DNA of 64,000 nt, taken from an uncultured Gammaproteobacteria bacterium. GTDB taxonomy: Bacteria > Pseudomonadota > Gammaproteobacteria > UBA9214. Where the stretch lies: contig CAVQJD010000023.1 of NCBI GenBank assembly GCA_963712695.1, positions 47,832 through 111,831 on the forward strand, given 5' to 3'. Numbering within the stretch: the stretch's first letter is position 1; each line of letters begins with the position of its first letter. Shown here piece by piece: positions 33,442-58,561 of this stretch. The notes under the pieces were generated by a model. That model was not told where the DNA came from. It saw nothing but the letters and a program-made list of their open reading frames with translations, and did not search any database. The translations under genes were made by a program, and so were the position numbers.

Positions 33442-34179
33442 CGTCTAATTCATGCAGTTTTCGTAGCTCAGGTGTATTTCGATGCATTTAAGGCAATATA
33501 CATATCATTTAACGAAACACGAGCAGTATTATCCATCTTCTGCATTAATTGTCCAGTTCCCCGTATTTAGCATCAATTTCATTCACGTTTAATGCAATAG
33601 TCCTAACGGTTTCATTCATATAAGCTCCAGTCAAGATGCAGGATAGATTTCAGCAATCTCTAACAAATTGTGGTTACTACAAGTAGTGGTTATGCCGCCT
33701 CTACCACACTCTGCCACGGGGCATTACCTCTCGACGCCTTATGGGGCCGCCCGGCATTCTCTTACACGAAATCCATTTTCTATTGCCGTTTGCTGAATGG
33801 ACTCAATGGACACGCGACAGGCACAGATACCGATCGAGCCACTCTCACCATAAAGTTTGGATGAACGGCTCCAGGTATGTGTTCTCTTACAACTTGCCAG
33901 GTTAATGTGACGCAACTGGATGTCCAGTTTGTCGTCCATCTTGATAGGACTGCTACTGTTTTATGTTTTATGGGTCGTAGCTACAGAGATAGATTAGACT
34001 TCCCGCATCATTCCATGATGCGTTCTGCAGTCAGGATGTCACGAGCTGTGGATGTCGAAAATCCACATCAATATCCAAATTTTCCCGATCGCAGAAATAA
34101 ATTTTGTTCAGGTTTCAACAGTGTTTAACCGATGGGAGAATTACCGCAATAGCCAGGTTGCGGAAGGGGAATCGCCACT

Positions 34180-35977
34180 ATGGCAGTGAATTCATCTGCG
34201 CGTAGCAAGAAAAAGATAACGGCGTTTGTGCGCGCCGGTAAATGGCGGGAGGCAAGAGACGAATGCCGCAAGATGACGAAGGCGAACCCGCTCGACCCTG
34301 AAGCCTGGTTCATGCTGGGAGCTGGTCAGCGAGCAATTGGGTCGGCTCGAAGAAGTCATTTCAAGCTATCAAACAGTACTGAAACTGAGCGCAGGACGCC
34401 ACGCCGAAACACACTACAACCTTGGAGTGACTTATCAGAAGCTGGGTCGACTGGAAGAGGCTATAGCCAGTTATAAAGAGGCGCTTCGGATTAATCCGTC
34501 ATTTAGGAGCGGCATACAACAACGCCGGCATGGCATTGGAGGCACTGGGCAGACCAGTTGAGGCCCTTGCCTATTATATCGAATGAGGCTCGCCGTTTGC
34601 GCCCGGAACTCTCAGAGCCAAAGTCGGTATATCACGGATCATCAACAAAGCTGAAAACAGGTACTGGCGCCGAAGAAGTTTTGATGGAGACATTGCGAAG
34701 TAACCGCGGCGATACGAACAGTCATTGCCATCTTGGCGAGCTATATTGGTCGCAAAGCCGCTGGAAGGAAGCCGAAGACCACTATCGTCAGGCGCTGGAG
34801 CAAGATCAAACCCTTGTGGATGCGTGGATCGGCCTGGGAAATGTACTCCAGGATCAAGGACAGTACGACGAATCCGGGTCCTGTTATGAACACGCACTGG
34901 AACTGGCACCAGACAATAGCGGCGCACACTACAATCAGGGTGCACTGGATCTACGACAGATGAGACTCAGTGGAGCACTGTCACGGTTTGATCGCGCCAT
35001 CAGCTATCAGCCGGAATTTGTCGAGGCCCATTGGCACAAGTCCTTCGTCTGCTTGCTAACTGGAGACTATACGCAGGGCTGGCAGGAATATGAATGGCGA
35101 CATCGACGGAAAGACTGTATCAGGCGGTCTTTTACTCAACCTACCTGGGATGGTTCAGCCCTTGATGGCCGCACCATCCTTGTACACGATGAACAAGGGT
35201 TCGGCGATACGTTCCAGTTTGTGAGGTATCTTCGACGCGTCAAAGCACAAGCAGGGCACGTGATCTTCGAATGCCACCGCGGACTCCGTGAGGTGTTGAG
35301 TGGTTGTGACGGGTTATGACCAGATAATAGAACGCGTTTCATATCGGGATATACCCCAAGTCGCGTTCGATGTTCAGGTACACCTGATGAGCCTTCCGGG
35401 CATTCTGGGCACTGATCTGAACAATATTCCCTGCGAGGTACCCTATATCAGACCCGACCCAGTGCGAGTAGAGAAATGGCGGGATCGCCTGGCCGCTGAT
35501 GCGGGATTCAAGGTGGGTATTGCGTGGGCCGGAAGCCCGAAACACACCAATGAGGTAAGCCGCTCCTGCAAGCTGGAGCAGTTCGCACAATTGGGGCGGA
35601 TTCCAGGAGTGCATCTATACAGCCTGCAGAAAGGAGATGGCGCCAGGCAGGCCGAGTCATTACCCTCCGGGATGAATCTGGTTCGACTGGACAAGGAGCT
35701 GGACAACGAAGCGCCTTTCGTGGACACGGCAGCCGTGATGGCAAATCTGGATCTGATTCTGACAATTGACACCTCTATTGCACACCTGGCGGGCGCCCTC
35801 GGACAGCCAGTCTGGACCTTATTATGTACCATGCCTGACTGGCGCTGGTTGCTGGATCGGCCAGATTCCCCCTGGTATCCGGGGATGCGCCTGTTCCGCC
35901 AACGCGAGGCCGGTGATTGGCAGCCGGTCTTCGAATCGGTCGCGAAAACTCTTAACGGTGTGGTTAGAGATTTATAA
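34180..35977 (+). pseudogene. TPR-repeat / GT9-like glycosyltransferase, degraded paralog of 44230..46221 (4 or more frameshifts)
   Basis: Track ORFs 34180, 34337, 34558 and 35300 join into one protein collinear with the 663-aa paralog. Shared blocks include HWHKSFVCLLTGDYTQGWQEYEWR, ILVHDEQGFGDTFQFVRY, WAGSPKHTNE, DTSIAHLAGALGQPVWTLL and PWYPGMRLFRQ. Confidence 0.75.
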
Positions 35978-36069
35978 TAAGTACAGGTCTACGAAAGCAA
36001 TAATTGCGATAGGAATGTCGGTTGCACGGCACCCCTTGATCAGGTTCCAGCATCCGACACTAAATTGAT

Positions 36070-37038
36070 TCAGCCGAGCGCCAGCTCAATGTCTCGCAGA
36101 TTCTCCTTTGCGATGCTGCTATTCTTCAACTTCGATTTGTCTATGTTCAGTGATTTGGCTTTCTTTTTGATTATATCAAGCACTTCCGGCAACACCTTTG
36201 CTATCGGCATTCGGCTTCTGCGCATCGTACGGAAATCCTCCAGGTCGAGGGATATGCCGACAAGATCTCGCAAGTGATCAGCTATATGTTTCCGGTATTT
36301 TCTATCTTCTATGTGCTCGTGGTTGATAATCAGATCGGCATATTTCAAGTTGTATAGTAGGGATAGCGCCCAGAAAAAAAACAGCACGCTTCTGTACAGC
36401 TCAAATTGTCGCCTGGATGCGAATCGGGGAATGCCTCTGGCATCTCTCGCCAGTGCGGCTGGCTGCTCCCTGTTCAGAAAGTCATAGAGTTCGGTAAAGA
36501 ACCTGTTCGTTCTGTTGTATTTTATTATCTGAAATAGTGGGCTCAATCCATTCAGCAATACGGTTGATTCGAACTGTTCGTCGAAGCGCCGCAGGATATA
36601 CAGATTGACCGCATCGAATTGAGTAGCGAATGCTGCGGTTCTGAAAGAGGCTCGAACCATTTTGAATACCGGGATCCTCTTTTTGACCTGTGCATGAGCG
36701 ATCAGTCTGGCAAGATAATCCTGTAGGCTCTGCCCATTGCTGTCATTTTCCAGAAAATATTCGTTGTAGACGGAGAAGTTCCGGTGAAAAGTGCGGAACC
36801 AGTCCTCGTCAAACGGGTACTCAGCGAAATAGGATTTATCGATGTTGGTATGCCGCAGCGCCTTGGTGATGCCCGTATCGAATTCCCGCAGGAAATCCGA
36901 TGCGCTCTTGATAGCCAGATCCTCGTGGAAAGGCTCGTAGTAACAATAACACTCCTCTTTATGTCGGTACTTACCCCACCAGTAGGTGCCGCCGGACCTC
37001 CACATGGAGTTGATGAAAATAGCGCTCGTTGACGACAT
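36070..37038 (-). CDS. hypothetical protein; weak sulfotransferase-like N-terminal motif
   Basis: 322-aa ORF in the AT-rich island. The segment IFINSMWRSGGTYWW resembles a PAPS 5'-phosphosulfate-binding loop (strand followed by xRSGxT). Nothing else was recognised. Confidence 0.55.
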   Translation of the reverse strand: MSSTSAIFINSMWRSGGTYWWGKYRHKEECYCYYEPFHEDLAIKSASDFLREFDTGITKALRHTNIDKSYFAEYPFDEDWFRTFHRNFSVYNEYFLENDSNGQSLQDYLARLIAHAQVKKRIPVFKMVRASFRTAAFATQFDAVNLYILRRFDEQFESTVLLNGLSPLFQIIKYNRTNRFFTELYDFLNREQPAALARDARGIPRFASRRQFELYRSVLFFFWALSLLYNLKYADLIINHEHIEDRKYRKHIADHLRDLVGISLDLEDFRTMRRSRMPIAKVLPEVLDIIKKKAKSLNIDKSKLKNSSIAKENLRDIELALG

Positions 37039-37530
37039 CTAGTTAGGCCTCTCAAGAAAACAAACCATCACCGCTGTGCTTGGGTTGTTGTGTGTGGCGC
37101 GCCCCCATCACGGCAGCGCGCCACACGTATTATGAGTCATTGCCCTACATCATACTTCAACCAGTCCACTGCGCCACATCGATGCCCGGATCTGACAGGT
37201 CGAACCAGTGCCGCGTGAAGTAGATCTGTAACATCCACTCAAGCCCTGGGGCGGTAACCCGGACCGGTCGGATTGGGATAATTGGGCTCCAGCGTCTGCG
37301 TCAGTTATTTCTGGGAAGCGATTTGCGCCATCTCCTCCAGAAACTGCTCCTTATGGGTCTTCTTGGTAAATTTCTCGAATCCGGTCAAGCTGCTTTGGCA
37401 CATGCTTTTTACACTAATTAACAAACAATGAAAGCGGGCACAAGGAATTAGCAGGCGACAGACAGGGCATCCGAAAGAGCACGATTGATATAACTCCCAC
37501 ATTACACAAAAAAACTTTATTTTGAGGCAT

Positions 37531-37565
37531 AAAAAAACCGGGTAGGAAACCCCACCCGGCTTTTT
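37531..37565 (-). terminator. rho-independent (bidirectional) terminator after the 198-aa sorted protein
   Basis: A7, then CCGGGTAGG, AAA, CCCACCCGG, then T5. On the minus strand this is a stem followed by a U7 run, about 50 nt past the stop at 37613. Confidence 0.7.
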
Positions 37566-37612
37566 CTGTGCATTAGCTGACTTTAACTTAATGCAAGCTC
37601 GGCATAATTAGA

Positions 37613-38209
37613 TTATGCCTGCGCTTTCCTACGACGGCGAGCCACTCCTACTAGGCCCACCAGTCCGGAGCCCATCAACCAGGCAGCTGCCGGAACCGGT
37701 ACTACGGAATAGGTACCCGACACATTATAGGTACCAATCTGATTGTTAAAGGGGCCACCTACAATCAGGGAGGTCCAGTTGATGCTGAAGGTGGAGCCGT
37801 TACCGGTACCCGTAAACGCACCGCCCTGAGCAAAGTCAGTGCCGTTCCAGTTGTCAGTGATGTTAATCGTACCACTCATGACACCACCGGTTTCATCGCC
37901 TGAAGAAGCTGCGGTGGTGAAACTGTTAACAAACGTGCCGCCGCCATTGAAATCCCAAGCTATCGGCGAGCTGGCGGCTGCTGTAAATTGTGCAACGGTG
38001 GTATCGAAACCAGCCGGGATTGCACCAGCGATCAGGTTGGCACCGCTAAAACTGGTTATAGTATTAGCTACTGGCGTAAACACGCCCATCTGGAACGTGC
38101 CACTGGTGATAACCAGTGAGGTCAGTGATGCCGCCTGTATAGAGGTAGCGGCAACACTAAGGCCCATTGCAGTGCCTACAATTGCTGCTATTGCTTTTTT
38201 ATTCATCAT
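37613..38209 (-). CDS. secreted protein with PEP-CTERM-class (VPxPA variant) C-terminal sorting tail
   Basis: Signal peptide (MMNKKAIAAIVGTAMGLSVAATSIQA). The tail is VPVPAAAWLMGSGLVGLVGVARRRRK, i.e. motif + TM + Arg cluster. The N-domain is homologous to 50085..51356. Confidence 0.85.
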   Translation of the reverse strand: MMNKKAIAAIVGTAMGLSVAATSIQAASLTSLVITSGTFQMGVFTPVANTITSFSGANLIAGAIPAGFDTTVAQFTAAASSPIAWDFNGGGTFVNSFTTAASSGDETGGVMSGTINITDNWNGTDFAQGGAFTGTGNGSTFSINWTSLIVGGPFNNQIGTYNVSGTYSVVPVPAAAWLMGSGLVGLVGVARRRRKAQA

Positions 38210-38675
38210 GTTTTACTCCTCAAGATCCGGATTAAAAGTAATCATTAACTACTATGCATGCACCTGCTTCCTTGCACAGACCCTAAACAAACAGTTGGCC
38301 TACAAGAATGCAGTGCCCAACAAACGTGCAAATAGCAAGCCAATTCTGATATTTCCATATATTACAGACTGATATACTACTCACAACATGCTCAGCGTCT
38401 GTTACCACGATCACATTGTAAGCAATTTCGACGAGTTTCTTGATATTGTTCCTGAGTCTAGGCCTGATTCATAAGTAAAAACAGATAGTTATGAATAATA
38501 TTTTGCGATGTTAAGCAAACCGACAAAGGGAATGCGTCAGGATCAAGACAAACTCCTTGTAATATAAGAAGAAAATAATCAGTAAGCAGGTCTTACGGCA
38601 TTGTTTATCCTTTGGATGGAACCCAGCCTGTTCAAGTTCGTACCCACTTGTGTGCATACCACAGGCGCATTTTCC

Positions 38676-39004
38676 TCATTCAAGGGGCTCAACAGGGTTG
38701 TCAGCATTTCCCAAGACATCACCCAGCTCCGCCAGTAATGGTTCTAGAAAGGTTTGATAATTTTTCCAGCGATACATGGAAGTCTTATAGATCGCCCTGC
38801 GCACCTGATCATGGCTGGCGGTCATCACCATGCGCGGGTTGTCCTGAAATTTCAGGCATTGTTCATCCCATGGCAGGCCACAAAATTCCACCAACCTGCG
38901 GCTCACGATCTCATGACTTTTAACCAAGTCTTCGTAGTGACCGTCCAGAACAGGGTAATGTAGAACTCTCTGCCAGTACTCCATCAATTGCCAATAAATA
39001 TTAT
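38676..39004 (-). pseudogene. C-terminal fragment of a sulfotransferase, cut by ISL3
   Basis: IYWQLMEYWQRVLHYPVLDGHYEDLV...CGLPWDEQCLKF...RWKNYQTFLEPL aligns with the last ~100 aa of the 41045..42715 protein. The reading frame stays open right up to the IS end at 39005. Confidence 0.7.
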
Positions 39005-40391
39005 GGGTCTACGCGGATTCGTGTGGGTCATTTTTGGTGAATTTCGGCAGTGGTGGCAAGAAGGCGGCGATGATTTTCAGCTTCAGGTACTCCTCATCGC
39101 GGTAGCCGTAGGCCCGCCGCTGCAGGACACGGATCTTGTTGTTGAGGCCTTCGACCAAACCGAGGCTGACCTTGTTGTCGGGATCACAGTAGGAAGCGAT
39201 ACCATCCCAATGGCGTTCGATCATGCGAGCAAACTTGCGGTAGGGTTCCAGCCGCTGCCACTTCAGGGCGTCCTGCCAACGCTCGAAGAAGGCCCGCGCG
39301 CCGCGTTCGGTGCGGTAGTCCCAGAGTTGCCCGAAGGACTCCTTGAGCAGGTAGGCGGTGTTGAGCCGCTGGTTGGCGGCGAGCAGTTTCTTGAGGGCGT
39401 GGCGGCCATCCAGGGAGAGGTTCTCGCGGCTGGAGAGCAACATATAGCGCTTGCCCTTGATGTAGCTGCGGTCCTTGCCAGCGAGGCGCCGGTACTCGCT
39501 TCTGCGCACCTCGTCGAGGGCATCGGCGAGGTGGCGCATGACGTGGAACTTGTCGAAGACGATACGGGCATCGGGGATGTTGCGGGTGACGGAGTTGCGG
39601 AACGGCTTCCACATGTCCATCACGGCCAGTTCGATGCGGGCGGTCTTTTTCGGCCCCAAATCAGCGAAAAAGCGATCGAGGTCGGCCTCCTTGCGGCCCT
39701 CGCCGCCGACCCAGATGGGACGGCCCCGCTCCAGGTCGCTGACGATGACCCGGTAGTTGTGGCCCTTGCGGATGGAGATCTCGTCGATGCCGATGGCCCG
39801 CGGGGCGGGCAGGCCGGCGCGCTCCACCTGCTGTTGCATGTAGAGCTTGTCGAGATCCTTCACCGTGCTGTGGTGCAGGCGCTCCATCTCGGCGACCGCC
39901 TTGTTCGGCATGTCGCGGCACAGCTTGCCCACATGCAGGGCAAAGCGCTGGGTGTAGCGCGGGTTCTTTGCCAGCCAGTCGAGGTGCTCTACATGCACGC
40001 CACCGCACCTCGGACAGTTGACGCGCCAGCGCTCGAACTCCAGGTAGATCCGCCAGTCGGCCACCGAGAGGTCGCGCACCGCGGCAGATGCGCTTGTCGT
40101 AACGGCCTCGGCAGCGGTGACCGCAGCATGGAACATACGGCCGTTTTTTTCGCCGCTTGAGGGTGACGACGCGGGCGTAGCGGTCACCGAATACGCCCCT
40201 GAGCGCCGGAGCTGGCCGTAAAGCCAGGCAGCGAAAACAGCGCGCGCAATGTGCGGGGATCGTTCATTCATGTACCCTGCGAGTAAATGAAACCACTTTT
40301 ACACCTGCCCAGAGGGCCGGAAAGCACTGGAATTATAGTGGGTTCTGCATGCAAACCACGGTTTTTGACCCACAGGATTCCGTGTTGACCC
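39005..40391 (-). mobile_element. ISL3-family insertion sequence
   Basis: Imperfect terminal inverted repeats, GGGTCTACGCGGATTCGTGTGGGTCA (39005-39030) against the reverse complement of 40366-40391 (GGGTCAACACGGAATCCTGTGGGTCA). A single transposase ORF. G+C is much higher than the flanking island. Confidence 0.85.
39009..40271 (-). CDS. ISL3 family transposase
   Basis: 420 aa with a zinc-finger-like CPRCGG and a DDE domain. Typical ISL3 blocks (IGIDEISIRKGHNYRVIVSDL, VMDMWKPF, FDKFHVMRHL, EGLNNKIRVLQRRAYGYRD). Confidence 0.9.
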   Translation of the reverse strand: MNERSPHIARAVFAAWLYGQLRRSGAYSVTATPASSPSSGEKNGRMFHAAVTAAEAVTTSASAAVRDLSVADWRIYLEFERWRVNCPRCGGVHVEHLDWLAKNPRYTQRFALHVGKLCRDMPNKAVAEMERLHHSTVKDLDKLYMQQQVERAGLPAPRAIGIDEISIRKGHNYRVIVSDLERGRPIWVGGEGRKEADLDRFFADLGPKKTARIELAVMDMWKPFRNSVTRNIPDARIVFDKFHVMRHLADALDEVRRSEYRRLAGKDRSYIKGKRYMLLSSRENLSLDGRHALKKLLAANQRLNTAYLLKESFGQLWDYRTERGARAFFERWQDALKWQRLEPYRKFARMIERHWDGIASYCDPDNKVSLGLVEGLNNKIRVLQRRAYGYRDEEYLKLKIIAAFLPPLPKFTKNDPHESA

Positions 40392-41032
40392 AGATATTTT
40401 ATCTGGTTCATCTTGAACATAAGGTTCAAGCACTTCAAAGGCTTCCGTATATTGTTTGTTTTATATATATCCGCCATTCTCGAAACCGCACTGACTAACC
40501 CGGGATTTAGGCGCAGCGCATGCTGGTAGTGTTTCAAAGCGCTGTCCAGGTTACCCGTTTCCTGATATGCCTCTGCCAGACTATGATGGATATCTGAATC
40601 ATGCGGTGCCAATCGGACCGCCTGCTGATAGTTTGCGATCGCATCATCGATATTTCCCAGATCCTGTAACACGCCACCTCGATTAAAATGTGCCACAGCA
40701 TAATCCGGATTTATCCGGACCGCCTTGTCAGATTCGGACAATGCCTCCCTGAACTTGCCCTGCGCCCTCAACGCAGAACCCAGGTTATTCCGGGCCTGAT
40801 GATTTCCGGGTGAAAGCTTGATTACACGGCGCATACATTGCTCTGCCTCAGGATAGAGGCAAAGCATGCTATTGGCAGCACCCAGCATAGACCAGGCTTC
40901 TGCATCCTTCTTAACCCTTGAACACACCCCAGTTAAGACCTTCCTTGCGTTATCAGCGCGATTACCCTGTAATAATCTGGCAGCATGTTGCTTCTGTTCA
41001 TGAATAGAATGTTTACCTGCATTCATATACAA
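40392..41032 (-). pseudogene. N-terminal TPR fragment of a TPR-sulfotransferase paralog, truncated by ISL3
   Basis: ORF 40268..41032. TPR repeats run up to ...MNQIKYL, then read into the IS terminal repeat. The PAPS-binding core seen in the intact paralog is absent. Confidence 0.65.
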
Positions 41033-41044
41033 ACCATCCAGCAG

Positions 41045-42715
41045 CTAGATATTGGATTCAAGCCCCTTGTACAGCGGCCCCAGAAACTCCTCGTAATTCT
41101 GCCAGCGAGCCAGGGACTCTTTATAAATGGGTTTTGTTACCTGATCAAAGCTTGATGTTACAACGGCACGTTTTGAGTCGTAGTATCGCAATACCGACGC
41201 ACTCCATTCCAGACCACAATACTCTATGAGTTGCCGGCTGGCCTGCTCGGGGTTGGCAACCAATCGTTCGTAGGGCACATCCAAGATTTGAAGGTTGAGC
41301 ACATTGCGCCAGTGTCGCATCAGTTTTTCATACTGCCGGTAATACATTCCCAGATTATGCAGATCACTGGAATAGGGATGCTGACCTGCGAAATTCTGAA
41401 AATAACACGAAAGGCAGGTATCCCGAGGGTCGCGTATACAGTGAATTATTTTAGCGCCTGGAAACATCAACTGAATCAGGCCAAGATGCAAGTAGTTACC
41501 CGGCATCTTGTCTGTGATCACCTGGTACTTGTCACTGCCTGCACGCTTGTTTACTGCCTTGAAATAATTTTTAGCTGCCGTATCAAGCACTGGCCGCGAT
41601 ACATCCTCCAAGCAGAAGGGGTATGTCATTGCGCTTTTTGTTAGAGTCGGCAAGTGTACAGCAAGATCGTTGATTTCCTGTAATTCACCAGCCGCATAAA
41701 CTGCAGGATGACTACCGATAATCTGCTCCACCAGGCTCGTCCCGGAGCGCGGCATACCGACGATAAATACGAGTAGCTGCCCCTTGTTTCGTTTGCGCGC
41801 AACTTGTGCGCCTGCCAGATAATCAGCGCTCCAGAAGGCGATATGCCTGTTTAGTTGTTCATTTGCAGCCCATGGGTCAAATGAGTCAGCACCAAGCTCG
41901 TTAGCTTGCTTATAATATTCAAACGCAGATTGGTAATTTTTCAATGCGTCATGCAACTTGCCTAGTGCAAACAGGAGTCGACGTTTTTCATCTAGAGGTG
42001 GCGAAGTCGCATCAAGTAGCTTCTGCAGACAAACTATCGCCTCCTCGCGCTGGCCAATAGCACCACTGATATCTGCGTACAAGGTGGCAATACTGATATT
42101 CTTACTTCCCTGTTCCAGGAAAGGCTGTATAAGCGTGTAAGCCAAGTGCGGATCATTGCTACGTGCGGCTATTGCCGCAAGCCCTGCTGTTGCATTAGGG
42201 TCCATCGGCTTTAACCTGACCGCTTTTCGATAGGAAGCTCTGGCCTGCTCGATTTTACCCAGGGCGAGGTGAATGTCCCCCAGGCGAATGTTTACTTCTA
42301 CATTATCTGGCTGGATTTTCGCGGCAAGTTTGTAGTGCCGCACTGCTTCCAGATGCTGCCCCAGTGCAAAACATACAGCACCCAGCCTCACCCGTGATTC
42401 TATATGATCAGGGTCGATTCGCAGCGCAGCTTCCAGACTGTACTTCGCACTGTCTACCCGTCCGAGCGAGCCGAGCGCCATGGCGTGACAGAAGTAAATG
42501 GCTGGAACATCCTTTCTCAGGGCAAGTGCTCGCTCACAACAGGCCGCTGCCTCGGCAAATTCCCCGAGATAGAGCAATGCATTAGCCAATAAAAAAAAGG
42601 CTTCGCTATCTTCACAAGCGACTGTACATATCTGTTGCAACAATTCCCTCGATTCTAGAATCCTTCCTTGCTGTAAAAGCATCCTGGCGTTGTTTTTCTG
42701 GGCAAGATTATCCAC
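41045..42715 (-). CDS. TPR-repeat sulfotransferase
   Basis: About 300 aa of TPR repeats, then a sulfotransferase domain with a 5'-PSB loop (FIVGMPRSGTSLVEQ) and a 3'-PB-like block (IHCIRDPRDTCLSCY). Confidence 0.85.
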   Translation of the reverse strand: MDNLAQKNNARMLLQQGRILESRELLQQICTVACEDSEAFFLLANALLYLGEFAEAAACCERALALRKDVPAIYFCHAMALGSLGRVDSAKYSLEAALRIDPDHIESRVRLGAVCFALGQHLEAVRHYKLAAKIQPDNVEVNIRLGDIHLALGKIEQARASYRKAVRLKPMDPNATAGLAAIAARSNDPHLAYTLIQPFLEQGSKNISIATLYADISGAIGQREEAIVCLQKLLDATSPPLDEKRRLLFALGKLHDALKNYQSAFEYYKQANELGADSFDPWAANEQLNRHIAFWSADYLAGAQVARKRNKGQLLVFIVGMPRSGTSLVEQIIGSHPAVYAAGELQEINDLAVHLPTLTKSAMTYPFCLEDVSRPVLDTAAKNYFKAVNKRAGSDKYQVITDKMPGNYLHLGLIQLMFPGAKIIHCIRDPRDTCLSCYFQNFAGQHPYSSDLHNLGMYYRQYEKLMRHWRNVLNLQILDVPYERLVANPEQASRQLIEYCGLEWSASVLRYYDSKRAVVTSSFDQVTKPIYKESLARWQNYEEFLGPLYKGLESNI

Positions 42716-42872
42716 AGGTGGCTACCAGATCGCACTCGCATGACGCATTGCCCTCGTTTTTTGCCGCGCCTATTATCGCAAATACGAGGAATTAATCAGA
42801 GTGTCCTTAATTATTTACAAATACAAAACACAGATGAGTGCGTGTTAGCGCTGATGCAGGGAAATTCTGCAA

Positions 42873-43748: not shown

Positions 43749-43824
43749 TGTTTAGGATCTCCTGATATTGACCACCATAATCGCGTCACTAGTCGCAATT
43801 AGTTACAAATACAAGCGCATCGAG

Positions 43825-44178
43825 CTAATACTGCTGGTAGGATTTCTCCTCTTTGATCCTGGAGCCGGCTAATGCATTGATTTTCTGCTTGATTTTCGCG
43901 CGAAGATCGTTAGTTTTGTATACGCTGCGTGCCAATTGTATAAATTCTGCATCAAAATCACCGTCTCGCTCCTTGCCCCGAATCTGATCCTCTATTTCCC
44001 AAAGCTGTTCATTAACAGACCGCAGCTCTGCTGCAAGACTTGCGATCTCGGAAACCTTGCCAAGGCTGTCGATTCTAACCTGAGACAACAATTCCAGCTC
44101 AGCCTGCACATTCGACAATTTAACTGAATCACGAATACGCTCCGTCTTGATTTCGAGTATTGTTATCTTATCAATCAA
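43825..44178 (-). CDS. small coiled-coil protein, hypothetical
   Basis: 117 codons from the TTG at 44178. The frame is open back to 44229, and a strong AGGGAGG lies at 44221-44227 right after the upstream stop, so the true start may be non-canonical and further upstream. Confidence 0.55.
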   Translation of the reverse strand: MIDKITILEIKTERIRDSVKLSNVQAELELLSQVRIDSLGKVSEIASLAAELRSVNEQLWEIEDQIRGKERDGDFDAEFIQLARSVYKTNDLRAKIKQKINALAGSRIKEEKSYQQY

Positions 44179-44229
44179 CTCGCCAACTGAAATTTCAATT
44201 AAAATCGAAATGAGCAGGTACCTCCCTTG

Positions 44230-46221
44230 CTAGCTTAGTTTTTTAGTTAGGTCTTTTACGACGTCCTTGAACACACCAGCCCAATTTCCGGGCTCTGCCT
44301 GCCTGAACAGGCGCATTGTTGGATACCAGGGATTAGTCACCCCCGCTACCAGCCACCGCCAATCAGGTGAAGTAGAGAGCAGCGTCCATACCGGCCTGCC
44401 AAGCGCCCCGGCAAGATGGACAATGGAAGTATCGATGGATATGACCAAATCAAGATTTTCAATAACTGCAGCTGTATCTACAAATCGGGCACCGTGATCC
44501 AGGTCCATGTCAATACGATGAAGCTCAAATGGCTCCGTCAGCCCGTTTACCTGCTCAATGGCAGGGCCTTTTTGAAGAGAATAGAGGCTGACGCCTTCAA
44601 CCGCACACAAGGCCGAAAACGCCTGCAAAGGGCAGGAACGTACCGCCTCATTCGTATGCCTGGGACTACCCGCCCAACAAATTCCAATCTTGAACCGGGT
44701 ATCATTTTCCAGGCGGCTTTTCCATTTTTCAACCAGGCCCTGATCTGCCTTAAGGTATGGAATCTGCGCTGGTATGGTTTCGAGACGCGTATTGAAGATA
44801 TACGGCAGGCTCATCAAGTGGATCTGACAATCGAAGGATACATCGGGCACAGATTCCACCGTACTCCGCTCAATGAGCTGGTCATAACCTTCGCACCCCT
44901 GAAGTATCGGGCCCAGCTTGTTATGGCACTCAAAAATCACCCTTCCTCCACGCGCCTTTACCAAGGGTAAATAGCGCACAAACTGGAAAGTATCACCATA
45001 GCCTTGCTCGTCATGGACAAGGATCGTTCGACCATTGAGATCTTCACCCTTCCATACAGGCTGAATAAACGGGCGCTCGATATACTGTTCACCGCGCAAC
45101 CGCCATTCATATTCCCGCCACCCTGCTTCGAAGTCGCCTGTCAGCAGAGACACGAAGGATTTATTCCAGTGTGGATGAAAAAATTCCGGTCTGAATGCTA
45201 TCGCCTGGTCAAAGCTGGCGACTGCTGACCTGAATTCCCCGAGACGCTTTTCCAGTAATCCCCTGTTGTAATATGCCTCGGCATTTTCAGGTGCGAGCCT
45301 CAATGCACTGGCATAACTGGACATGGCTGCATCAAATTGCCCTTTATTCTGCAGTACATTGCCCAGATTAATCCATACCTCAACAACATCCGGCATAATG
45401 TCAATTGCCTTGCGGTAACAGGACTCTGCTTCATCATGCCTCGCAGTAAGCTCGTACACCTGCCCGAGCAACTGATGCGCGTGATAATATTGCTGGTTAC
45501 TCTGCAACACCTCCAGCAGCAGATCTTCCGCAGCCGACAAGTCTCCTTTTCCCATGAAGAGCCTTGCCACCCCAAGTTTTGCATCCACATGGTGACTGGA
45601 CTGGCGGAGCACATCGCGATAGGCTTTTTCAGCATTGCCGACATCTCCGGCTCGCTCATAAGCCAGCGCCAGAGTCATACGAATATCAATATTGCGGGAG
45701 TCTAGCTGGACAGCCTTGGAACTTACCTCGATTGCTTCAGAAAATCGTTCCATGGCTATAAGTGCATTTGCCAGATTCGAATACCCCTCTACCGCGTCTG
45801 GAGCAAGTCGTATCGCATTGCGGCCGGATTTCTCGGCTTCTTTATAGTAACCCAGCTTACCTTCGACACTCGCGAGTGTCGCCCAGATTTCACCATATTC
45901 AGGATCATGCTCAAGTGCTGTCTTCAGACAGCCCGCTGCCTCAGCCAGCTCGTCCCTGGCAATCAGGAGACGACCAAGTATCACGTTGGCCTCGACATTA
46001 TCATGCTCCAGCTGAACAGCCTGACGGCAGCAGGCAATAGCCTCGCCAACATTCCCAAGTTCACCATTAACTGCACCGAGCATTAACCATGCATCAGTGT
46101 TCGCAGCATCAATTCTGGTAATTTCTCTATACAGATTGATGGCTTCATTTACCTGTCCGCATTCAAGACAGTTCATCGCCTGATCAACCATTTCGGGAAT
46201 ATTTTTCTCCACTCTCTCCAT
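44230..46221 (-). CDS. TPR-repeat / GT9-like (heptosyltransferase-fold) glycosyltransferase
   Basis: About 340 aa of TPR repeats, then a GT9-like domain (ILVHDEQGYGDTFQFVRY, WAGSPRHTNE, IDTSIVHLAGALGRPVWTLL, PWYPTMRLFRQ). Confidence 0.8.
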   Translation of the reverse strand: MERVEKNIPEMVDQAMNCLECGQVNEAINLYREITRIDAANTDAWLMLGAVNGELGNVGEAIACCRQAVQLEHDNVEANVILGRLLIARDELAEAAGCLKTALEHDPEYGEIWATLASVEGKLGYYKEAEKSGRNAIRLAPDAVEGYSNLANALIAMERFSEAIEVSSKAVQLDSRNIDIRMTLALAYERAGDVGNAEKAYRDVLRQSSHHVDAKLGVARLFMGKGDLSAAEDLLLEVLQSNQQYYHAHQLLGQVYELTARHDEAESCYRKAIDIMPDVVEVWINLGNVLQNKGQFDAAMSSYASALRLAPENAEAYYNRGLLEKRLGEFRSAVASFDQAIAFRPEFFHPHWNKSFVSLLTGDFEAGWREYEWRLRGEQYIERPFIQPVWKGEDLNGRTILVHDEQGYGDTFQFVRYLPLVKARGGRVIFECHNKLGPILQGCEGYDQLIERSTVESVPDVSFDCQIHLMSLPYIFNTRLETIPAQIPYLKADQGLVEKWKSRLENDTRFKIGICWAGSPRHTNEAVRSCPLQAFSALCAVEGVSLYSLQKGPAIEQVNGLTEPFELHRIDMDLDHGARFVDTAAVIENLDLVISIDTSIVHLAGALGRPVWTLLSTSPDWRWLVAGVTNPWYPTMRLFRQAEPGNWAGVFKDVVKDLTKKLS

Positions 46222-46896
46222 CCTTATATATCTGCGTTTTTCTTATTGAGGCACTTTGATTCCGGCACAACAGGGCGATTGCCGGGCTTTATATTTGTAA
46301 CTTGACAGTATAACGCTACCCCGTAAGGTTACCCAATGGGAAGCAGGCGGCCTGTTGAATTAATGCCTGCAGTCCGAGACTGCCCTATATATTTACACTA
46401 TAGAATACAAGGGAAAGTAACCCTATTGAATTCTAAAACGCCAGCAGAGCGCGCAAATTAACTTCAAAATGAACCACCGTGAGTTGTCCCGGCTACTGCC
46501 TGATGCCAAAACGTTTTGACATCGAGCCCAGCACCAGTGACTGGCATTCTGCACCCAGCGGCCGCAATTCAATCGCAACGCCAGCGGCAACAGAATAGTT
46601 GCCTCCATACCGAAATATCTACTCGAGACTACTGATGGTGTGACCACCCAATGACTCCGGGTTTGCCAGCTACCGTAATAATTTCTGCCCTTCCAACATG
46701 ACCTGGCAAGTCGCATCGTAACGGCACCAGAGTATACTGTTGATTCGCAACTTCAAATCTGCTCTGATTATCTTCACCGGTTTTGCCCCTTTTTTGTCGT
46801 TTTTTATTGCTATAGCAACCGTACAAAACCAGAACTTCGCCCATCTCTCGATAAACATATTGCCTGCCTATCAAGCTTTAGTGACACCAGAGTTAG

Positions 46897-47949
46897 ATGA
46901 ATAAACTAGCAGATCTTGCAGTCAATCTGGCCGTAAGCGCTATCGCACTGCTGGCGATATTGGGCGTACTAGAAATGGGGATACTTGTATTTTTCTGGTT
47001 TCCCGGACTGAACAGTCTGCTTCCTGAAAATCTGCGTTACTACCCGATAAAGATCTATACATATCTTGATCGTCAACTTACAAGAGAGCTTGCTGTTTGG
47101 GACGAGGAACTGACCTATATTCTTAAACCGAATACTGTCATGGAGCATAGCAACCGTGAATTCAATGTGACTATATCAATAAATAATATCGGCGTCCGAG
47201 ATGACAATGACTCGCTTAAAAATCCAGATGTGGTCGTAGCCGGCGACTCCTTTGCAATGGGTTTTGGTGTTAGTCAGAATGAAACGTTTGCGCAGGTCAT
47301 TGAGCATGAAACAGGCCTGAAAGTACTGAACATGGGTATCGAATCTTACGGGACTGCCCGTGAAGTCATGCTGCTCAACAGAGTGGATACAGAAAACCTT
47401 AAATATCTTGTCATTCAGTATTGCCCCAACGACCTGGAGGAAAACTACAACTTCAACACAAATAACGGGAAGCTGACTAACATGAGCAAGGCGGACTTCG
47501 ATTCTACACTTAAGGGTTACATGGATGAACGGAATTATTATTTCGGCAAGTATCTACTATACTTGGCAAGAAATATAAAAAAGGAATCACTCCCTTTTAC
47601 AAGCAAGGAGGAAAAGAAATTATACAACCGTACGCATGCAAAAATGTTTCTGGATGCTCTCGCAAGAATCAAGGTTGACCTGAACCAGGCTCAATTGATT
47701 GCGTTTGATCTGGTGGATGAACACGCATCCTATATCCTGCAGCAACATCCTGATTACGACAGCGAACTATTTACTGAATTTGTGCGGGAGATGTCAGCCA
47801 ATCCGGACTACCCGGATTATATAAAGCAGATGAAGATATTCAATGCATCTGACCTGATTGGTGATACCGAGCGATACCATCTGGATGGTCATATAAATAA
47901 GGAAGGGCATGCAAAACTTGCACACACGATCATGCAGCTCATGCAATAA
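46897..47949 (+). CDS. membrane-anchored SGNH/GDSL-type hydrolase
   Basis: N-terminal TM. Block I is VVAGDSFAMGFG and block V is DGHINKEGH. Confidence 0.7.
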   Translation: MNKLADLAVNLAVSAIALLAILGVLEMGILVFFWFPGLNSLLPENLRYYPIKIYTYLDRQLTRELAVWDEELTYILKPNTVMEHSNREFNVTISINNIGVRDDNDSLKNPDVVVAGDSFAMGFGVSQNETFAQVIEHETGLKVLNMGIESYGTAREVMLLNRVDTENLKYLVIQYCPNDLEENYNFNTNNGKLTNMSKADFDSTLKGYMDERNYYFGKYLLYLARNIKKESLPFTSKEEKKLYNRTHAKMFLDALARIKVDLNQAQLIAFDLVDEHASYILQQHPDYDSELFTEFVREMSANPDYPDYIKQMKIFNASDLIGDTERYHLDGHINKEGHAKLAHTIMQLMQ

Positions 47950-48673
47950 GTGGCACACGATAACTTTTGACAGGCTCCTATTGGCCAGCAAAAATCACGC
48001 ATGCAGCAACCGGGCCTATACAAACGAAAACCGGTTCAGATTGACTCAATGCTTCCCTTCCGGCGAGCCGGCTAAACAAATAAGGTTACCCGCGCGTCTC
48101 AAGCCGGGACGGAAAGCGTAAATACTGGATAACACCCATACAAATTGAGTGTCGCCCGGCTTGCCTGACTGGCACACAAGAATCTGCAACAGGAGACACT
48201 CATCCGGTTTGATCCGAACAGCCTTTGGATGGTGATCAAGTTCCAATCATTCAGCTGCTGAAAGCCTCCGCAACAGCAAGCAGCACCCGCCTTCCGCCCT
48301 ACCCCGGCGCGGCACTCGGCACCACAACACAAAGCACCTTGCACGACACATGCCGTACCAATCGACCGAAAGAAAATACATGGACATGAATATTTTATTT
48401 AATTTTTCAAATGCTTACTATTATTCTTATGCAAAATAACCAGGCCCTCCACCGTAACCGGGGCATGCCCCGCGGTCACAAAGACAGAATCGAGTAATTG
48501 CGAACCATTAGCCGCCGTATTTTTACAAAACATTCCTTTGAGGGCATCAAACTGATTTGTTATCATCCGGCGATTGTTCAACTTAAAAAGATCAAGAATC
48601 TATACATGTTGCATACGTTTACCGTCTGGTAATTTACAGAATATTACAAATATCCAGTGTCTGGAGGATCCAC

Positions 48674-50011
48674 ATGGGCATGTTTAGCAAGAAGGTAGTC
48701 TCATTTGCATCATCACTTGTATTTTTGGGGGCATTTACTCAAACCGCCTTCGCCACCAACGGCTCATTTCTAATAGGTTACGGCGCAAAAAGCCGTGGTA
48801 TGGGTGGCGCTGGAGTCGCATATGCGCAGGATTCTCTCGTAAGCGCTACAAATCCGGCAGGTATGTCTGATGTCGGCATCCGCTTCGACGGCGGCCTGAT
48901 GATATTCAATCCAGAACGCAGTGCATGGGTGCCTGGCTTTTCCGGTAAATCCGAGATTGACAGCGGCGCCACCATCTATGCAATACCTAATATTGGCTTC
49001 AATTATCCCTTTAACAGGAAACTCACCGTGGGCTTTGCTTTTGTTGGCGCCGGTGGCGGCGGCACCCGCTACAATGAAAATTTCTTCGATTTCGGCAACC
49101 CGGCCAATCTGGGGCCGACACTCGGCGTGAATCTGGCACAGGCCATCATGTCCCCATCCTTTGCATACAATGTCACCAAGAAGCAAAGCATCGGGGCGAG
49201 CCTACTACTCGGGATACAGACCTTCAGGGCCTTCGGACTGGATGCATTCGGGGATGCTGGCTTTTCTATCGACCCAGACAATCTGACATCGCGTGGCAAT
49301 GACTGGTCGTATGGTGCAGGTGTAAGATTTGGATGGCGAGGCAAATTCTACGATGACAAACTCACTCTGGGCGCCGTTTATTCCTCGCGAATGTACATGA
49401 CAAAATTCGACAAGTATAAGGGGCTATTTGCCGAGCAAGGCGATGCTGACATTCCCGAGCAATATGCCATAGGGTTGGCTTTCAAAGCCACTGACAAGGC
49501 GACTGTGGCTTTTGATATCCAGCGGATCAATTACGGTGATATCGCCTCCTTCAGCAATCCCGGTCCGATCAGGTTTCTTCCACTGCCTACAGCAGCAGAT
49601 GAACGACTCATGGGTATGAATAACGGCCTGGGATTTGGGTGGCAGGATATGACCATTTACAAGCTCGGCTTGAACTATGACTACAATGATAAATACAGTT
49701 TCCGTGCCGGCTGGAACTATGGCAAGAAGCCAATGTGTGATGGAGGCACATATAACAACATTGACGGCATTACATCACCGGTAGACAAATGCAGCGTGGA
49801 TATACTTGCCAATACGTTGGCACCTGCTGTCGTGGAGCACCATCTGACACTCGGCATGTCCTACCGGCCCAGCAAGAAAGTGGAATGGACCGTTGGTCTC
49901 ATGCATGCATTCAGAGAGGATGTTGTTAAATTCAACGACTTTTCCGGTGATAACATCAAGATCAGCATGAACCAGTGGGCTGGTGATCTATCATTTGGAT
50001 ATAACTTCTAA
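48674..50011 (+). CDS. outer-membrane transport protein, OmpP1/FadL/TodX family
   Basis: Signal peptide, an N-terminal hatch-like GYGAKSRGMGGAGVA motif, beta-barrel periodicity, and a terminal aromatic (...SFGYNF). Confidence 0.85.
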   Translation: MGMFSKKVVSFASSLVFLGAFTQTAFATNGSFLIGYGAKSRGMGGAGVAYAQDSLVSATNPAGMSDVGIRFDGGLMIFNPERSAWVPGFSGKSEIDSGATIYAIPNIGFNYPFNRKLTVGFAFVGAGGGGTRYNENFFDFGNPANLGPTLGVNLAQAIMSPSFAYNVTKKQSIGASLLLGIQTFRAFGLDAFGDAGFSIDPDNLTSRGNDWSYGAGVRFGWRGKFYDDKLTLGAVYSSRMYMTKFDKYKGLFAEQGDADIPEQYAIGLAFKATDKATVAFDIQRINYGDIASFSNPGPIRFLPLPTAADERLMGMNNGLGFGWQDMTIYKLGLNYDYNDKYSFRAGWNYGKKPMCDGGTYNNIDGITSPVDKCSVDILANTLAPAVVEHHLTLGMSYRPSKKVEWTVGLMHAFREDVVKFNDFSGDNIKISMNQWAGDLSFGYNF

Positions 50012-50084
50012 TAGCGCTTGCAGACAAACCATCAGTTAACTCACGACTTGCCTTGCCAACCCAGTGAGTGTGGAGGATATTTTT

Positions 50085-51356
50085 GTGAAACAGAATAAAA
50101 CGCTAACAAGTACACTCTTTGCGCTCGGTATTGCTGCGACACAGCTGCCTCTACTACAAGCAGCCCCGATTATCGAACTCAGGGTAACCGGCGGTCAATT
50201 TCATATGGGTGTTTTTACCCCAACTGGCCCGGTACCGTATAGTTTTACCGACAGTAGCTACAATCTTATCACGGACTTTCCCACAACGATCGGCTGGGAC
50301 ACCACAGCGGGTAACACATCGGCCCAACCCGGCACTATCGTGGCATTCGACTTTGGTAGCCCATTTGTCAACACATTCAACACTACCTGTGACCCACAAG
50401 TAGTTGATGACTGTATCAACAATCCCCACACCCCGGTTACAGGTACGGTCAATGGTACATCCCTGATTATCGCCGACGGCGATCCGATCACGGTCGACAT
50501 CAATGCCATGTATGCAAACTGGAACGGCGTAAACTTTAACCAGGGCGGCACAACCGGAGCAGGAATTGCCTATCCGGGGGCAGCATTCGAGTTCCCCTTT
50601 ACCAGCACGGTCAGTAATGTCGACCCCGTAGCAGGCACGTTTAACTATGACATGACCTGGCAATCCCTGATTGTTGGTGGTCCGTTCAATGGCCAAACTG
50701 GTACCTGGCGGTTTACCGGGACCGGCGTCGTTGACCTGACAGGACCTACAAATGACCCGAAAACAGACCCCGGCTTGACATTATTAAATAATAATTTCGC
50801 CACGATCATGCTGACCTCCACCCAGGTTGCGGCATCCTACCCGCTGCCAACCACACACAGTCCCTGCACGGATTGCTGGGACTGGACGGTTACCGGTCTT
50901 GCCGCAAACGGTGACAGTGCACGGGTTGTGCTGCCGCTCTCTTCAGGATTCCCGGCAGGTGGTGAAGTCCTGAAGTATGACAGTGTGGCGTTAGCATGGG
51001 TGCCTTTTGACACCAGTACCGGTGATTCGGTCAGCTCTGCTCCGATTGCCGGCGGTATCTGCCCGGAGACGGGGGATCCCTCGTACGTCACCCCCCCCCA
51101 AACCGGTCATGTCTGCATCCAGATCGATGCCACCGATGGTGCCGCGAACGACGATAGCGGCCTGGATAGTGCGATCGTTGACCCGGGCGGCATATTTGTA
51201 CCGCTAGCAGTCAAGCCAGTGACGCAGATCAAAGACGGAAGTGCATGCAGTCTTGGCAATCGAAATGCTGGCCCGGCACAGGCTGCGGAATGGCTGCTAC
51301 TTGCTGGCTTCCTCGGCTGGCTGGGGATGCGCCGCAAGGAAACATACCGGCGCTAG
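50085..51356 (+). CDS. secreted protein, paralog of 37613..38209 with an extra domain and a different C-terminal anchor-like tail
   Basis: ORF 50064..51356. Preferred start is the GTG at 50085, 7 nt after GGAGGA. Shares VTGGQFHMGVFTP, NWNGVNFNQGG and WQSLIVGGPFNGQTGTW with the 198-aa protein. The C-terminus reads ...DATDGAANDDSGLDSAIVDPGG...CSLGNRNAGPAQAAEWLLLAGFLGWLGMRRKE. Confidence 0.75.
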   Translation: MKQNKTLTSTLFALGIAATQLPLLQAAPIIELRVTGGQFHMGVFTPTGPVPYSFTDSSYNLITDFPTTIGWDTTAGNTSAQPGTIVAFDFGSPFVNTFNTTCDPQVVDDCINNPHTPVTGTVNGTSLIIADGDPITVDINAMYANWNGVNFNQGGTTGAGIAYPGAAFEFPFTSTVSNVDPVAGTFNYDMTWQSLIVGGPFNGQTGTWRFTGTGVVDLTGPTNDPKTDPGLTLLNNNFATIMLTSTQVAASYPLPTTHSPCTDCWDWTVTGLAANGDSARVVLPLSSGFPAGGEVLKYDSVALAWVPFDTSTGDSVSSAPIAGGICPETGDPSYVTPPQTGHVCIQIDATDGAANDDSGLDSAIVDPGGIFVPLAVKPVTQIKDGSACSLGNRNAGPAQAAEWLLLAGFLGWLGMRRKETYRR

Positions 51357-51381
51357 AACTGCTGCAAGGTTTTGCACGAAA

Positions 51382-51412
51382 AGGCGCAGTCAGCAATGAC
51401 TGCGCCTTTTTT
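51382..51412 (+). terminator. rho-independent terminator
   Basis: GGCGCAGTCA, loop GCAA, TGACTGCGCC, then T7. Lies 26 nt after the stop at 51356. Confidence 0.85.
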
Positions 51413-51541
51413 TAGGGATACTTAGCTGTTTGGAACAAGCACCATGATATTGACGCGCCGACAGCTATCTGTTCCAATGATGCAAATTGTTTACAATTCA
51501 GACTCTTGGTTGTTTCATCATCACCCTGGGAAATAATTGCC

Positions 51542-53649: not shown

Positions 53650-53682
53650 TGGTACAAGCAGGGGGGGTAAAATCGTTTTAAA

Positions 53683-57092: not shown

Positions 57093-57105
57093 ACCCGCAA
57101 CTACC

Positions 57106-58551: not shown

Positions 58552-58561
58552 CCCGGTCCTG

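Follow-up and report, generated by a model that had tools for sequence, protein, structure and literature searches.

An AT-rich island in the genome of an uncultured gammaproteobacterium (assembly GCA_963712695.1, contig CAVQJD010000023.1), situated between aroQ and an exopolysaccharide (EPS) locus, encodes a small secreted protein with an exosortase sorting signal next to glycosyltransferases (GTs) and sulfotransferases fused to arrays of tetratricopeptide repeats (TPRs; Table 1). The island lies in a window of 64 kb on a contig of 134 kb. One pair of its genes, the TPR-GT and the adjacent gene for a DUF6165 protein, is specifically tied to the family of the small secreted protein, hereafter referred to as the cargo. 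A preliminary description of the sequence had proposed that the enzymes glycosylate and/or sulfate the sorted proteins. The reading favored here, to which we assign a probability of roughly 45%, is that of a variable protein-decoration module that would modify a sigma54-driven exosortase cargo in the cytoplasm, similar to how the GT FlmG modifies flagellin. It builds on domain identities, folds, adjacency, the enrichment of GT and DUF6165 genes, an upstream sigma54 element, and the fact that the enzymes lack signal peptides.

The cargo (198 aa) begins with a signal peptide (MMNKKAIAAIVGTAMGLSVAATSIQA-AS, read from the sequence) in a region that is kept in the family alignment. Its last 50 residues were recognized by TIGR03370 (VPLPA-CTERM; 32.0 bits, cut-off 25.35) and TIGR02595 (PEP-CTERM; 18.8 bits, cut-off 16), and scored below the cut-off of Pfam PF07589 (16.3 against 20.7). 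For the N-domain in between (37706-38128), AlphaFold (AF2) predicted a compact all-beta structure with a confidence (pLDDT) of about 97. Comparison of this model with the PDB using Foldseek yielded no significant match (best E = 0.24, TM score below 0.3), and the domain may represent a fold without a solved representative. The family is small and lineage-restricted; 305 homologs of mostly 200-230 aa were found in metagenome-assembled genomes (MAGs) of Gammaproteobacteria/Acidiferrobacteraceae and in metagenomes, and a search with the N-domain alone returned only 32 cluster representatives (50% clustering) from 1.84 billion proteins. Its members are rich in Gly (16%), Thr (13%), Ala (11%), Ser (10%), and Asn (7%), and contain hardly any charged residues (Lys, Arg, and Glu together ∼1.4%). 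Several Ser/Thr positions and the sequon N122-x-T124 are conserved. Upstream of the cargo gene lies a −24/−12 element of the sigma54 type. Of 11 further distinct loci, 8 have its consensus, TGGC-N7-TTGC, ahead of the small cargo gene (background frequency, 0.09 per 550 nt). Experimentally studied PEP-CTERM genes likewise have a sigma54 promoter upstream (PMC9850573).

The intact TPR-GT (663 aa; GT663) was assigned by its fold, which was needed because sequence searches of the PDB with its GT domain gave nothing firm; the single sequence matched no entry, and a profile matched only WaaC, marginally (E = 0.19). In its catalytic domain, the Pfam model Glyco_transf_9 (PF01075) scored 25.9 bits (cut-off 22) over profile positions 176-216 only. 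The AlphaFold model (pLDDT 88) has a GT-B fold, and its best Foldseek matches are enzymes of family GT9: 3tov (E = 1.7e-9), WaaF (1psw; E = 1e-8), and WaaC (E = 3e-7), with TM scores between 0.50 and 0.59. TibC, a protein heptosyltransferase, is also among the structural neighbors (TM ∼0.53). The nucleotide-sugar motif D-T-x-x-x-H-L-A-x-A-L of GT663 aligns with WaaC. Neither GT663 nor the intact sulfotransferase of the island (ST556, see below) contains a signal peptide in its sequence; thus, both are predicted to reside in the cytoplasm, where nucleotide sugars and the sulfate donor 3′-phosphoadenosine-5′-phosphosulfate (PAPS) occur. The family of TPR-GT9-like proteins is very large, with at least 7,800 matches, which carry generic names only.

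Directly downstream of the GT663 gene lies the one for the DUF6165 protein, and this order is retained in six related loci (L001-L004, L008, and L009; loci used for comparison are designated by numbers preceded by L). In four representatives that are unrelated to each other (P0174, P0184, P0215, and P0237), a GT9-like domain is fused C-terminally to DUF6165, and a match on a Mesorhizobium plasmid (H48) is likewise a GT9-like-DUF6165 fusion. As these fusions mirror the gene order, DUF6165 is probably a partner of the GT, either as an accessory protein or as an adaptor.

To what extent the enzymes accompany the cargo was quantified by comparing 13 loci encoding the cargo N-domain with 73 control loci, in which a VPLPA-CTERM tail is attached to an unrelated protein. 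The latter were available as controls because scans of genomes and metagenomes had responded to the tail motif and thus returned mostly such loci. Features were detected with locally built hidden Markov models (HMMs) and counted when located within 8 kb of the anchor gene, around which at least 9 kb of DNA had to be present. A GT663-type GT was found at 10 of 13 N-domain loci (8 of 11 when the near-duplicates L003 and L007 were left out) but at only 1 of 73 controls, and DUF6165 at 7 of 13 but at none of the 73 controls, which ties the pair specifically to this cargo family. An earlier count for the GT663 type, 8 of 12 versus 1 of 75, corresponded to a Fisher p of 7e-8. The FadL-type barrel was present at 7 of 13 N-domain loci and at 4 of 73 controls, and TPR-sulfotransferases at 5 of 13 and 7 of 73, respectively. 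The association with the cargo on which the preliminary description depended was thus borne out for the GT, but less clearly for the sulfotransferases. It is also lineage-specific.

Close relatives (L001-L004 and L008; cargo 52-80% identical) have their island at the corresponding site, with aroQ/accB on one side and the FadL gene and EPS locus on the other. The island is not one fixed cassette because its enzyme content differs even between these relatives, which encode one to three TPR-sulfotransferases, one or two GT663-type proteins, TPR-GT41 proteins, and FkbM methyltransferases; genes of the latter two kinds are absent from the window. More distant homologs of the cargo (39-44% identity) are found in other contexts but still beside TPR enzymes. 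In L006 and L007, both from Acidiferrobacteraceae MAGs, TPR-GT9-like, TPR-GT41, and TPR-GT2 genes are followed by the cargo, FadL, and a PrsR/PrsK-like pair. In L009, the order is DUF6165, TPR-GT9-like, cargo, TPR-GT41, and a second TPR-GT9-like gene, all within a GT cluster; in L010, the cargo gene precedes a TPR-GT9-like gene. Thus, TPR-GT41 proteins are encoded in the homologous modules of L004, L006, and L009. The Acidiferrobacteraceae module also adjoins a giant adhesin of the two-partner-secretion (TPS/ESPR) type, and a second, more divergent cargo paralog is encoded after a gene for a SurA-like chaperone (L006, 1-2280 and 18113-18778; L007, 16997-17656).

The second type of TPR-fused enzyme in the island is represented by ST556 (556 aa), a PAPS-dependent sulfotransferase by homology, whose closest relatives in the PDB are the tyrosylprotein sulfotransferases TPST2 and TPST1 (E = 2.4e-16). 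Carbohydrate sulfotransferases matched its catalytic domain only at an E value of about 0.2. Its motifs GMPRSGTSL and RDPRD (the PAPS-binding 5′-PSB and 3′-PB elements) and SSFDQVTKP align with those of TPST2. Of a second TPR-sulfotransferase, only an N-terminal and a C-terminal remnant are left, on either side of an insertion sequence (IS) of the ISL3 family. The IS is bounded by imperfect terminal inverted repeats of 37 nt (38994-39030 and 40366-40402), and no target-site duplication was found at its ends. The portion corresponding to residues ∼205-458 of the intact copy (∼250 aa, ∼750 bp), including the PAPS loop, is missing. What had been described as a disruption by the IS is therefore an IS-associated deletion and not a simple insertion; the missing ∼750 bp and the unduplicated target are consistent with either recombination between two copies of the IS or a deletion adjacent to it. 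The GC content of the element (0.625) resembles that of the host chromosome and not that of the AT-rich island.

If the enzymes act on the cargo, their TPR arrays would capture the precursor in the cytoplasm before it folds, in the way that flagellin is bound by the TPR part of FlmG. The catalytic domains would then add sugar, from an ADP-heptose-type or another nucleotide-sugar donor, and sulfate; acceptors would be Ser, Thr, Tyr, or Asn side chains or an attached glycan. The decorated protein would be exported by Sec, an exosortase encoded elsewhere would cut off the tail, and the protein would be lodged at the cell surface or in the EPS matrix, possibly aided by the FadL-type barrel. The differing enzyme sets of close relatives would then lead to surface diversification. 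Substrate, donors, acceptor residues, the sequence of steps, and the parts played by DUF6165 and the porin are inferred from several lines of evidence: the sulfotransferase is closest to TPST1/2, GT41 enzymes are found in relatives, and TibC is a structural match of GT663; the cargo is flanked by TPR-transferases in syntenic relatives as well as in distant contexts; GT and DUF6165 occur as fusions; and FlmG provides a precedent, to which the conserved Ser/Thr positions and N-x-T sequon of the cargo and its sigma54 element can be added. A more far-reaching version, which we regard as doubtful, is a hypervariable system in which TPR-tethered enzymes (GT9-like GT and TPST-like sulfotransferases, joined in relatives by GT41, GT2, and FkbM methyltransferases) glycosylate, sulfate, and methylate one abundant, sigma54-induced matrix protein of the PEP-CTERM class before Sec export, with DUF6165 as adaptor and the FadL barrel, by analogy to PorV, as passage or shuttle.

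Several observations weigh against decoration of the cargo. All support consists of adjacency and homology, and no modification was observed. The p-value given above is generous because the cases stem from related lineages and represent about four independent genomic contexts. Four N-domain loci lack a nearby GT, namely L011 (a short contig), L012 (at a contig edge), L013, and L044. The sulfotransferase link is weak and confined to the clade of the window itself, and such enzymes also occur next to other VPLPA-CTERM genes (L043, L053, and L084) and where EPS loci begin (L031 and L084). In Scalindua, Tepidisphaeraceae, a deltaproteobacterium, and Azospirillum, TPR-GT9-like proteins occur without a sorting-signal protein nearby. 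The cargo N-domain is a compact, confidently predicted fold and not a low-complexity Ser/Thr linker. Moreover, acidic residues are almost absent from the cargo (Glu accounts for 0.9% in the family, Tyr for 2.1%), and a semi-conserved Tyr (63% of the members) is replaced by Ala63 in the protein of the window. The cargo is for these reasons ill-matched to canonical TPST sites, and a Tyr in an acidic, accessible context was not found in the 198-aa protein; the acceptor of ST556 could instead be Ser/Thr or a glycan. Finally, the island adjoins EPS genes, and in L009 the module lies among GT1/GT2 genes, both of which is compatible with polysaccharide substrates. Of what had been proposed for the sorted proteins, the link to GT and DUF6165, the TPST-like domain, and the lack of signal peptides on the enzymes are in favor, while the weak sulfotransferase link and the tail of the second presumed substrate, which is not of the PEP-CTERM class (see below), are not.

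The position of the island suggests an alternative, namely that the TPR-transferases tailor the EPS of the adjacent XrtA locus (for instance, a sulfated heptose-containing EPS), its lipid-linked repeat unit, or a glycolipid. The TPR arrays would then dock the enzymes on the assembly machinery, and the cargo gene would be no more than a co-regulated neighbor. The EPS genes next to the island, already recognized as exosortase-type in the preliminary description, were identified in HMM scans by the XrtA/PEP-CTERM markers TIGR03027, TIGR03016, TIGR03007, TIGR03018, and TIGR03015. Of the control loci with TPR-sulfotransferases, several carry them at the FadL/TIGR03016 start of EPS loci (L031 and L084), and the module of L009 is surrounded by methyltransferase as well as GT1/GT2 genes. 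Characterized GT9 enzymes are mostly lipopolysaccharide (LPS) heptosyltransferases, and the weakly matching SGNH-type esterase of the island is of a kind typical of polysaccharide O-acetyl handling. Yet, ST556 is far nearer to protein-tyrosine than to carbohydrate sulfotransferases, and the relatives encode GT41 enzymes as partners, all characterized members of which, to our knowledge, act on proteins. GT663-type and DUF6165 genes follow the cargo N-domain and not VPLPA-CTERM or EPS loci in general, and in L006/L007 the module stands beside the cargo with no polysaccharide GT within 10 kb. EPS tailoring is the main alternative but less likely in our view. Within the window (EPS stretch, 51542-61865), the usual GTs, the exosortase XrtA, and the EpsI-type asparagine synthase are not present, and neither an exosortase nor PrsK/R/T was found among the window ORFs scanned against models. 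The XrtA-type locus seems to end after the TIGR03015 ATPase (57106-58551), beyond which lie genes for a VanZ-family protein and a GMP/IMP nucleotidase.

It is also conceivable, if quite improbable, that the TPR enzymes modify other proteins, either as a general surface-protein or flagellin-type system or with the 430-aa paralog of the cargo as sole target, in which case the adjacency to the 198-aa protein would merely reflect a shared flexible island. The size of the family and its distribution are in line with this possibility. Arrays of TPR enzymes without a sorting-signal protein are found in L092 (Tepidisphaeraceae), L090/L091 (Scalindua), L175, and Azospirillum megaplasmids, and FkbM or other methyltransferases frequently accompany them; one 14-kb stretch contains six GT9-like copies plus GT41 genes, and there are up to 12 GT9-like genes per Azospirillum replicon. 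Such arrays constitute a widespread uncharacterized theme with no obvious substrate gene nearby. In the deltaproteobacterial locus L093 (7312-11204), a TPR-GT9-like gene directly follows an HldE-like gene (PfkB plus cytidylyltransferase) and a nucleotidyltransferase gene and precedes motB/motA, and a homolog on the Ralstonia solanacearum megaplasmid (L176) lies 3.5 kb from fliHIJK, which hints at heptose-type donors and a role in flagellar contexts for some members of the family. At the TPR-GT9-like locus of a Burkholderia plasmid, no flagellar genes were found, and at those of Azospirillum only TPR-enzyme arrays. Against such targets in the present case speak that the window is devoid of flagellar genes, including flagellin, and that the order GT-DUF6165-cargo is kept across genomic contexts in this lineage.

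The AT shift of the island, previously judged by eye, was confirmed by computation; GC lies between 0.43 and 0.55 across 33-51 kb, compared with ∼0.60 on either side (1-33 kb and 55-64 kb). Toward the right, the transition is gradual, with 0.52-0.55 up to ∼55 kb, that is, into the first EPS genes, and the ISL3 element forms a GC-rich block at 39-40 kb. The upstream 33 kb of the window consist of housekeeping genes. The proteins of the contig are near-singletons at 90% identity. No tRNA gene was found in the whole window and no integrase among its scanned ORFs, as had been stated for the borders, the sole recombinase being the ISL3 transposase; thus, the combination of integrase and tRNA gene or direct repeats that marks classical integrative islands is not seen here. 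Low GC is not an intrinsic property of the module, which L006 and L010 carry at a GC of 0.60-0.65. Low GC, the ISL3 element with its associated deletion, the IS66, IS4, and ISL3 elements in the islands of close relatives, an orphan ORF (322 aa), and the variable gene content of these relatives could all be accounted for by a recombination and IS hotspot that gathers foreign, partly decaying genes without a common function. However, the core genes are intact and 40-80% identical across lineages, the module also exists at normal GC, the enrichment statistics speak for a specific association, and the apparent frameshifts are probably assembly errors, all of which makes a mere hotspot very improbable.

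The latter point concerns the second TPR-GT as well, which is 53-57% identical to GT663 over residues 229-659 and had been considered degraded. Genes in the flanks are broken in the same way: accC (30300-33441 region, together with accB and aroQ) needs at least six frame changes and aroQ one (at about 33265), purH (25000-26543) is truncated at profile position 345 of 511, and the Poly_export gene (51542-52102) has an in-frame stop at codon 20. The related contig L001 is fragmented in like manner. That essential genes are affected suggests an unpolished long-read assembly with indel and base errors and not genuine pseudogenes. Because the assembly carries such errors, as evident from accC and aroQ, the second TPR-GT may be intact in the real genome; two TPR-GT9-like genes are present as described, but the degradation of one may be an artifact.

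The preliminary description had listed two paralogous secreted proteins with sorting-signal-like tails. The paralogy holds, as the N-domain is common to the 198-aa and the 430-aa protein (33% identity, E = 3e-19), and the tail of the former passed two models as described above, but the tail of the latter (51230-51356) is not of the PEP-CTERM class. VPLPA-CTERM scored 13.4 bits (cut-off 25.35), MYXO-CTERM, the best model, 15.7 bits (cut-off 20), and no sorting model passed. In place of the Pro-rich motif, this tail contains an invariant Cys motif, [S/T]-[G/A/S]-C-[S/T/A], followed by 10-13 residues, (A/S)(D/E)WW(L/I)(L/V)(A/G)(G/A)F, a transmembrane helix, and a basic cluster, and it is conserved in the 430-aa orthologs of loci L001, L008, L010, L012, and L031. 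It resembles the Cys-type signals, such as MYXO- and JDVT-CTERM, described by Haft, and could be a so far undescribed type among the Cys-containing sorting signals whose processing is attributed to CPBP/Rce1-like proteases. A search of the window for such a protease returned none.

Among the remaining genes, the FadL-type barrel is the conserved immediate neighbor of the cargo genes in L001, L006, L007, L008, L010, L011, and L012, and its N-terminus is weakly PorV/PorQ-like (type IX system). Adjacency and this likeness, and nothing else, are the reasons to consider that it might serve as outer-membrane passage or shuttle for exosortase cargo. Together with the barrel, the lipoprotein of the preliminary description was confirmed; it has a 46% identical homolog in L002/L003, and only some relatives possess it. 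The SGNH hydrolase it had listed is less certain because its matches are weak (NCBIfam, E = 1.5e-10 but far below cut-off; Pfam, E = 0.024), although a 72% identical homolog is encoded in L002/L003. The TPR, Glyco_transf_9 (partial), and Sulfotransfer_3 domains that had been read from the sequence were all detected by HMM. For the 322-aa ORF, in contrast, a sulfotransferase fold had been suggested but found no support; Pfam, NCBIfam, and PDB sequence searches gave no signal even at E values up to 10, and no homolog was present in any fetched locus, the window being the only one among 90 sources to contain it.

Table 1. Features of the island and its right flank, with positions in the window.
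Feature	Position	Strand	Basis or remark
Second TPR + GT9-like gene	34180..35977	+	∼600 aa if repaired; split over at least four frame changes
Orphan ORF, 322 aa	36070..37038	-	no family or PDB match; outside conserved module
Cargo, 198 aa: signal peptide, all-beta N-domain (aa 27-169), VPLPA-/PEP-CTERM tail	37613..38209	-	TIGR03370, TIGR02595; core
Sigma54-type −24/−12 promoter element, TGGCTTGCTATTTGCA	38327..38342	-	∼120 nt upstream of cargo start codon
C-terminal remnant of second sulfotransferase	38676..38993	-	tblastn; about aa 458-548 of intact paralog
ISL3-family insertion sequence	38994..40402	-	transposase 39009-40271; GC 0.625
N-terminal TPR remnant of second TPR-sulfotransferase	40403..41032	-	tblastn, aa 6-187 of intact copy; TPR matches
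Intact TPR + TPST-like PAPS sulfotransferase, 556 aa (ST556)	41045..42715	-	PF13469 Sulfotransfer_3, E = 2e-45
Lipoprotein, 291 aa	42873..43748	-	lipobox LSGC read in sequence; accessory
DUF6165 small helical protein	43825..44178	-	PF19662, E = 1.6e-14
Intact TPR (aa 1 to ∼359) + GT9-like GT-B glycosyltransferase (aa ∼360-663), GT663	44230..46221	-	PF01075, Foldseek
Membrane-anchored putative SGNH/GDSL hydrolase, 350 aa	46897..47949	+	GDS block at GDSFAMG; accessory
FadL/Toluene_X outer-membrane beta-barrel	48674..50011	+	PF03349, E = 1e-16
Paralog of cargo, 430 aa: shared N-domain, extra C-domain (weak choice-of-anchor U match), Cys-type tail	50064..51356	+	sequence comparison, HMM
Start of XrtA/PEP-CTERM EPS locus (export protein, TIGR03016 outer-membrane protein, chain-length determinant, tyrosine autokinase, TIGR03015 ATPase)	51542..58551	+	context of island, not a member

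The individual parts of the proposed module have known counterparts. FlmG, the flagellin O-glycosyltransferase of Caulobacter crescentus, binds its substrate with the TPR half, and its GT-B half sets the donor specificity (PMC7591256). Like GT663, it consists of an N-terminal TPR array (about 310-360 aa) and a C-terminal GT-B domain of about 300 aa, is cytoplasmic, and is encoded near a secreted structural protein as substrate. However, this likeness is one of layout; the presumed substrate here is exported by Sec and sorted by an exosortase instead of being a flagellin, genes for nonulosonic-acid biosynthesis are lacking, as are any sugar-nucleotide genes in the island, and a DUF6165 partner has not been described for FlmG. 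To the heptosyltransferases of the GT9/BAHT group, GT663 is linked by the PF01075 match, the motif shared with WaaC, and the GT9 folds as best structural matches, but identity amounts to only 12-16%, the Pfam match is partial, and WaaC, WaaF, and TibC have no TPR fusion. The BAHT enzymes TibC and Aah act in the cytoplasm, where they glycosylate an adhesin that is then secreted via Sec; GT663 has no iron-binding dodecamer signature to compare with theirs.

ST556 shares with TPST1/2, its nearest solved relatives, the PAPS-binding 5′-PSB and 3′-PB and a C-terminal S-x-D-Q-V-x-K-P block, but differs by its fusion to about 300 aa of TPRs and by a candidate substrate that offers no acidic Tyr context. 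In Xanthomonas, RaxST sulfates a small secreted peptide, RaxX. GT41 enzymes (OGT and HMW1C) are represented by the TPR-GT41 proteins of relatives. Enzymes of the HMW1C type work in the cytoplasm on a secreted adhesin, which they glycosylate at N-x-S/T sequons; an N-x-T is conserved in the cargo family. With XrtA/PEP-CTERM cargo such as PepA (PMC1569441 and PMC9850573), the 198-aa protein has in common the signal peptide, the tail, an uncharged Gly/Thr/Ser-rich body, and the sigma54 element; its gene heads an XrtA-type EPS locus, and homologs in L006/L007 have PrsK/R-like genes beside them. The difference is that the literature searched describes no enzymes dedicated to the modification of PEP-CTERM proteins. 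Haft suspected that PEP-CTERM proteins are extensively glycosylated but named no enzymes, and an earlier comparative-genomics study predicted that glycine-rich proteins secreted by bacteria are sulfated, although in another enzyme context (PMC2938197). Full-text searches returned no paper meaningfully linking PEP-CTERM with sulfotransferases, none on DUF6165, and one incidental mention of VPLPA-CTERM. The parts are known, but their combination appears to be undescribed, in agreement with the preliminary description.

PEP-CTERM/exosortase systems are widespread in environmental, floc- and biofilm-forming bacteria, and their modifying enzymes have so far not been named. The locus offers a concrete pairing of a small, well-folded cargo family with a TPR-GT9-like enzyme and DUF6165, plus candidate protein sulfotransferases, and thereby a functional lead for two very large uncharacterized families, the TPR-GT9-like proteins and the TPR-sulfotransferases; for DUF6165, the fusions with GTs are the first such lead. 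If decoration of the cargo were confirmed, the principle of FlmG, in which the TPRs capture and the GT modifies, would be extended from flagellins to Sec-exported, exosortase-sorted matrix proteins, and protein sulfation would be added to the surface chemistry of bacteria. Should even the hypervariable system hold true, PEP-CTERM modification would have its first defined enzyme set, and bacteria their first system for the sulfation of surface proteins.

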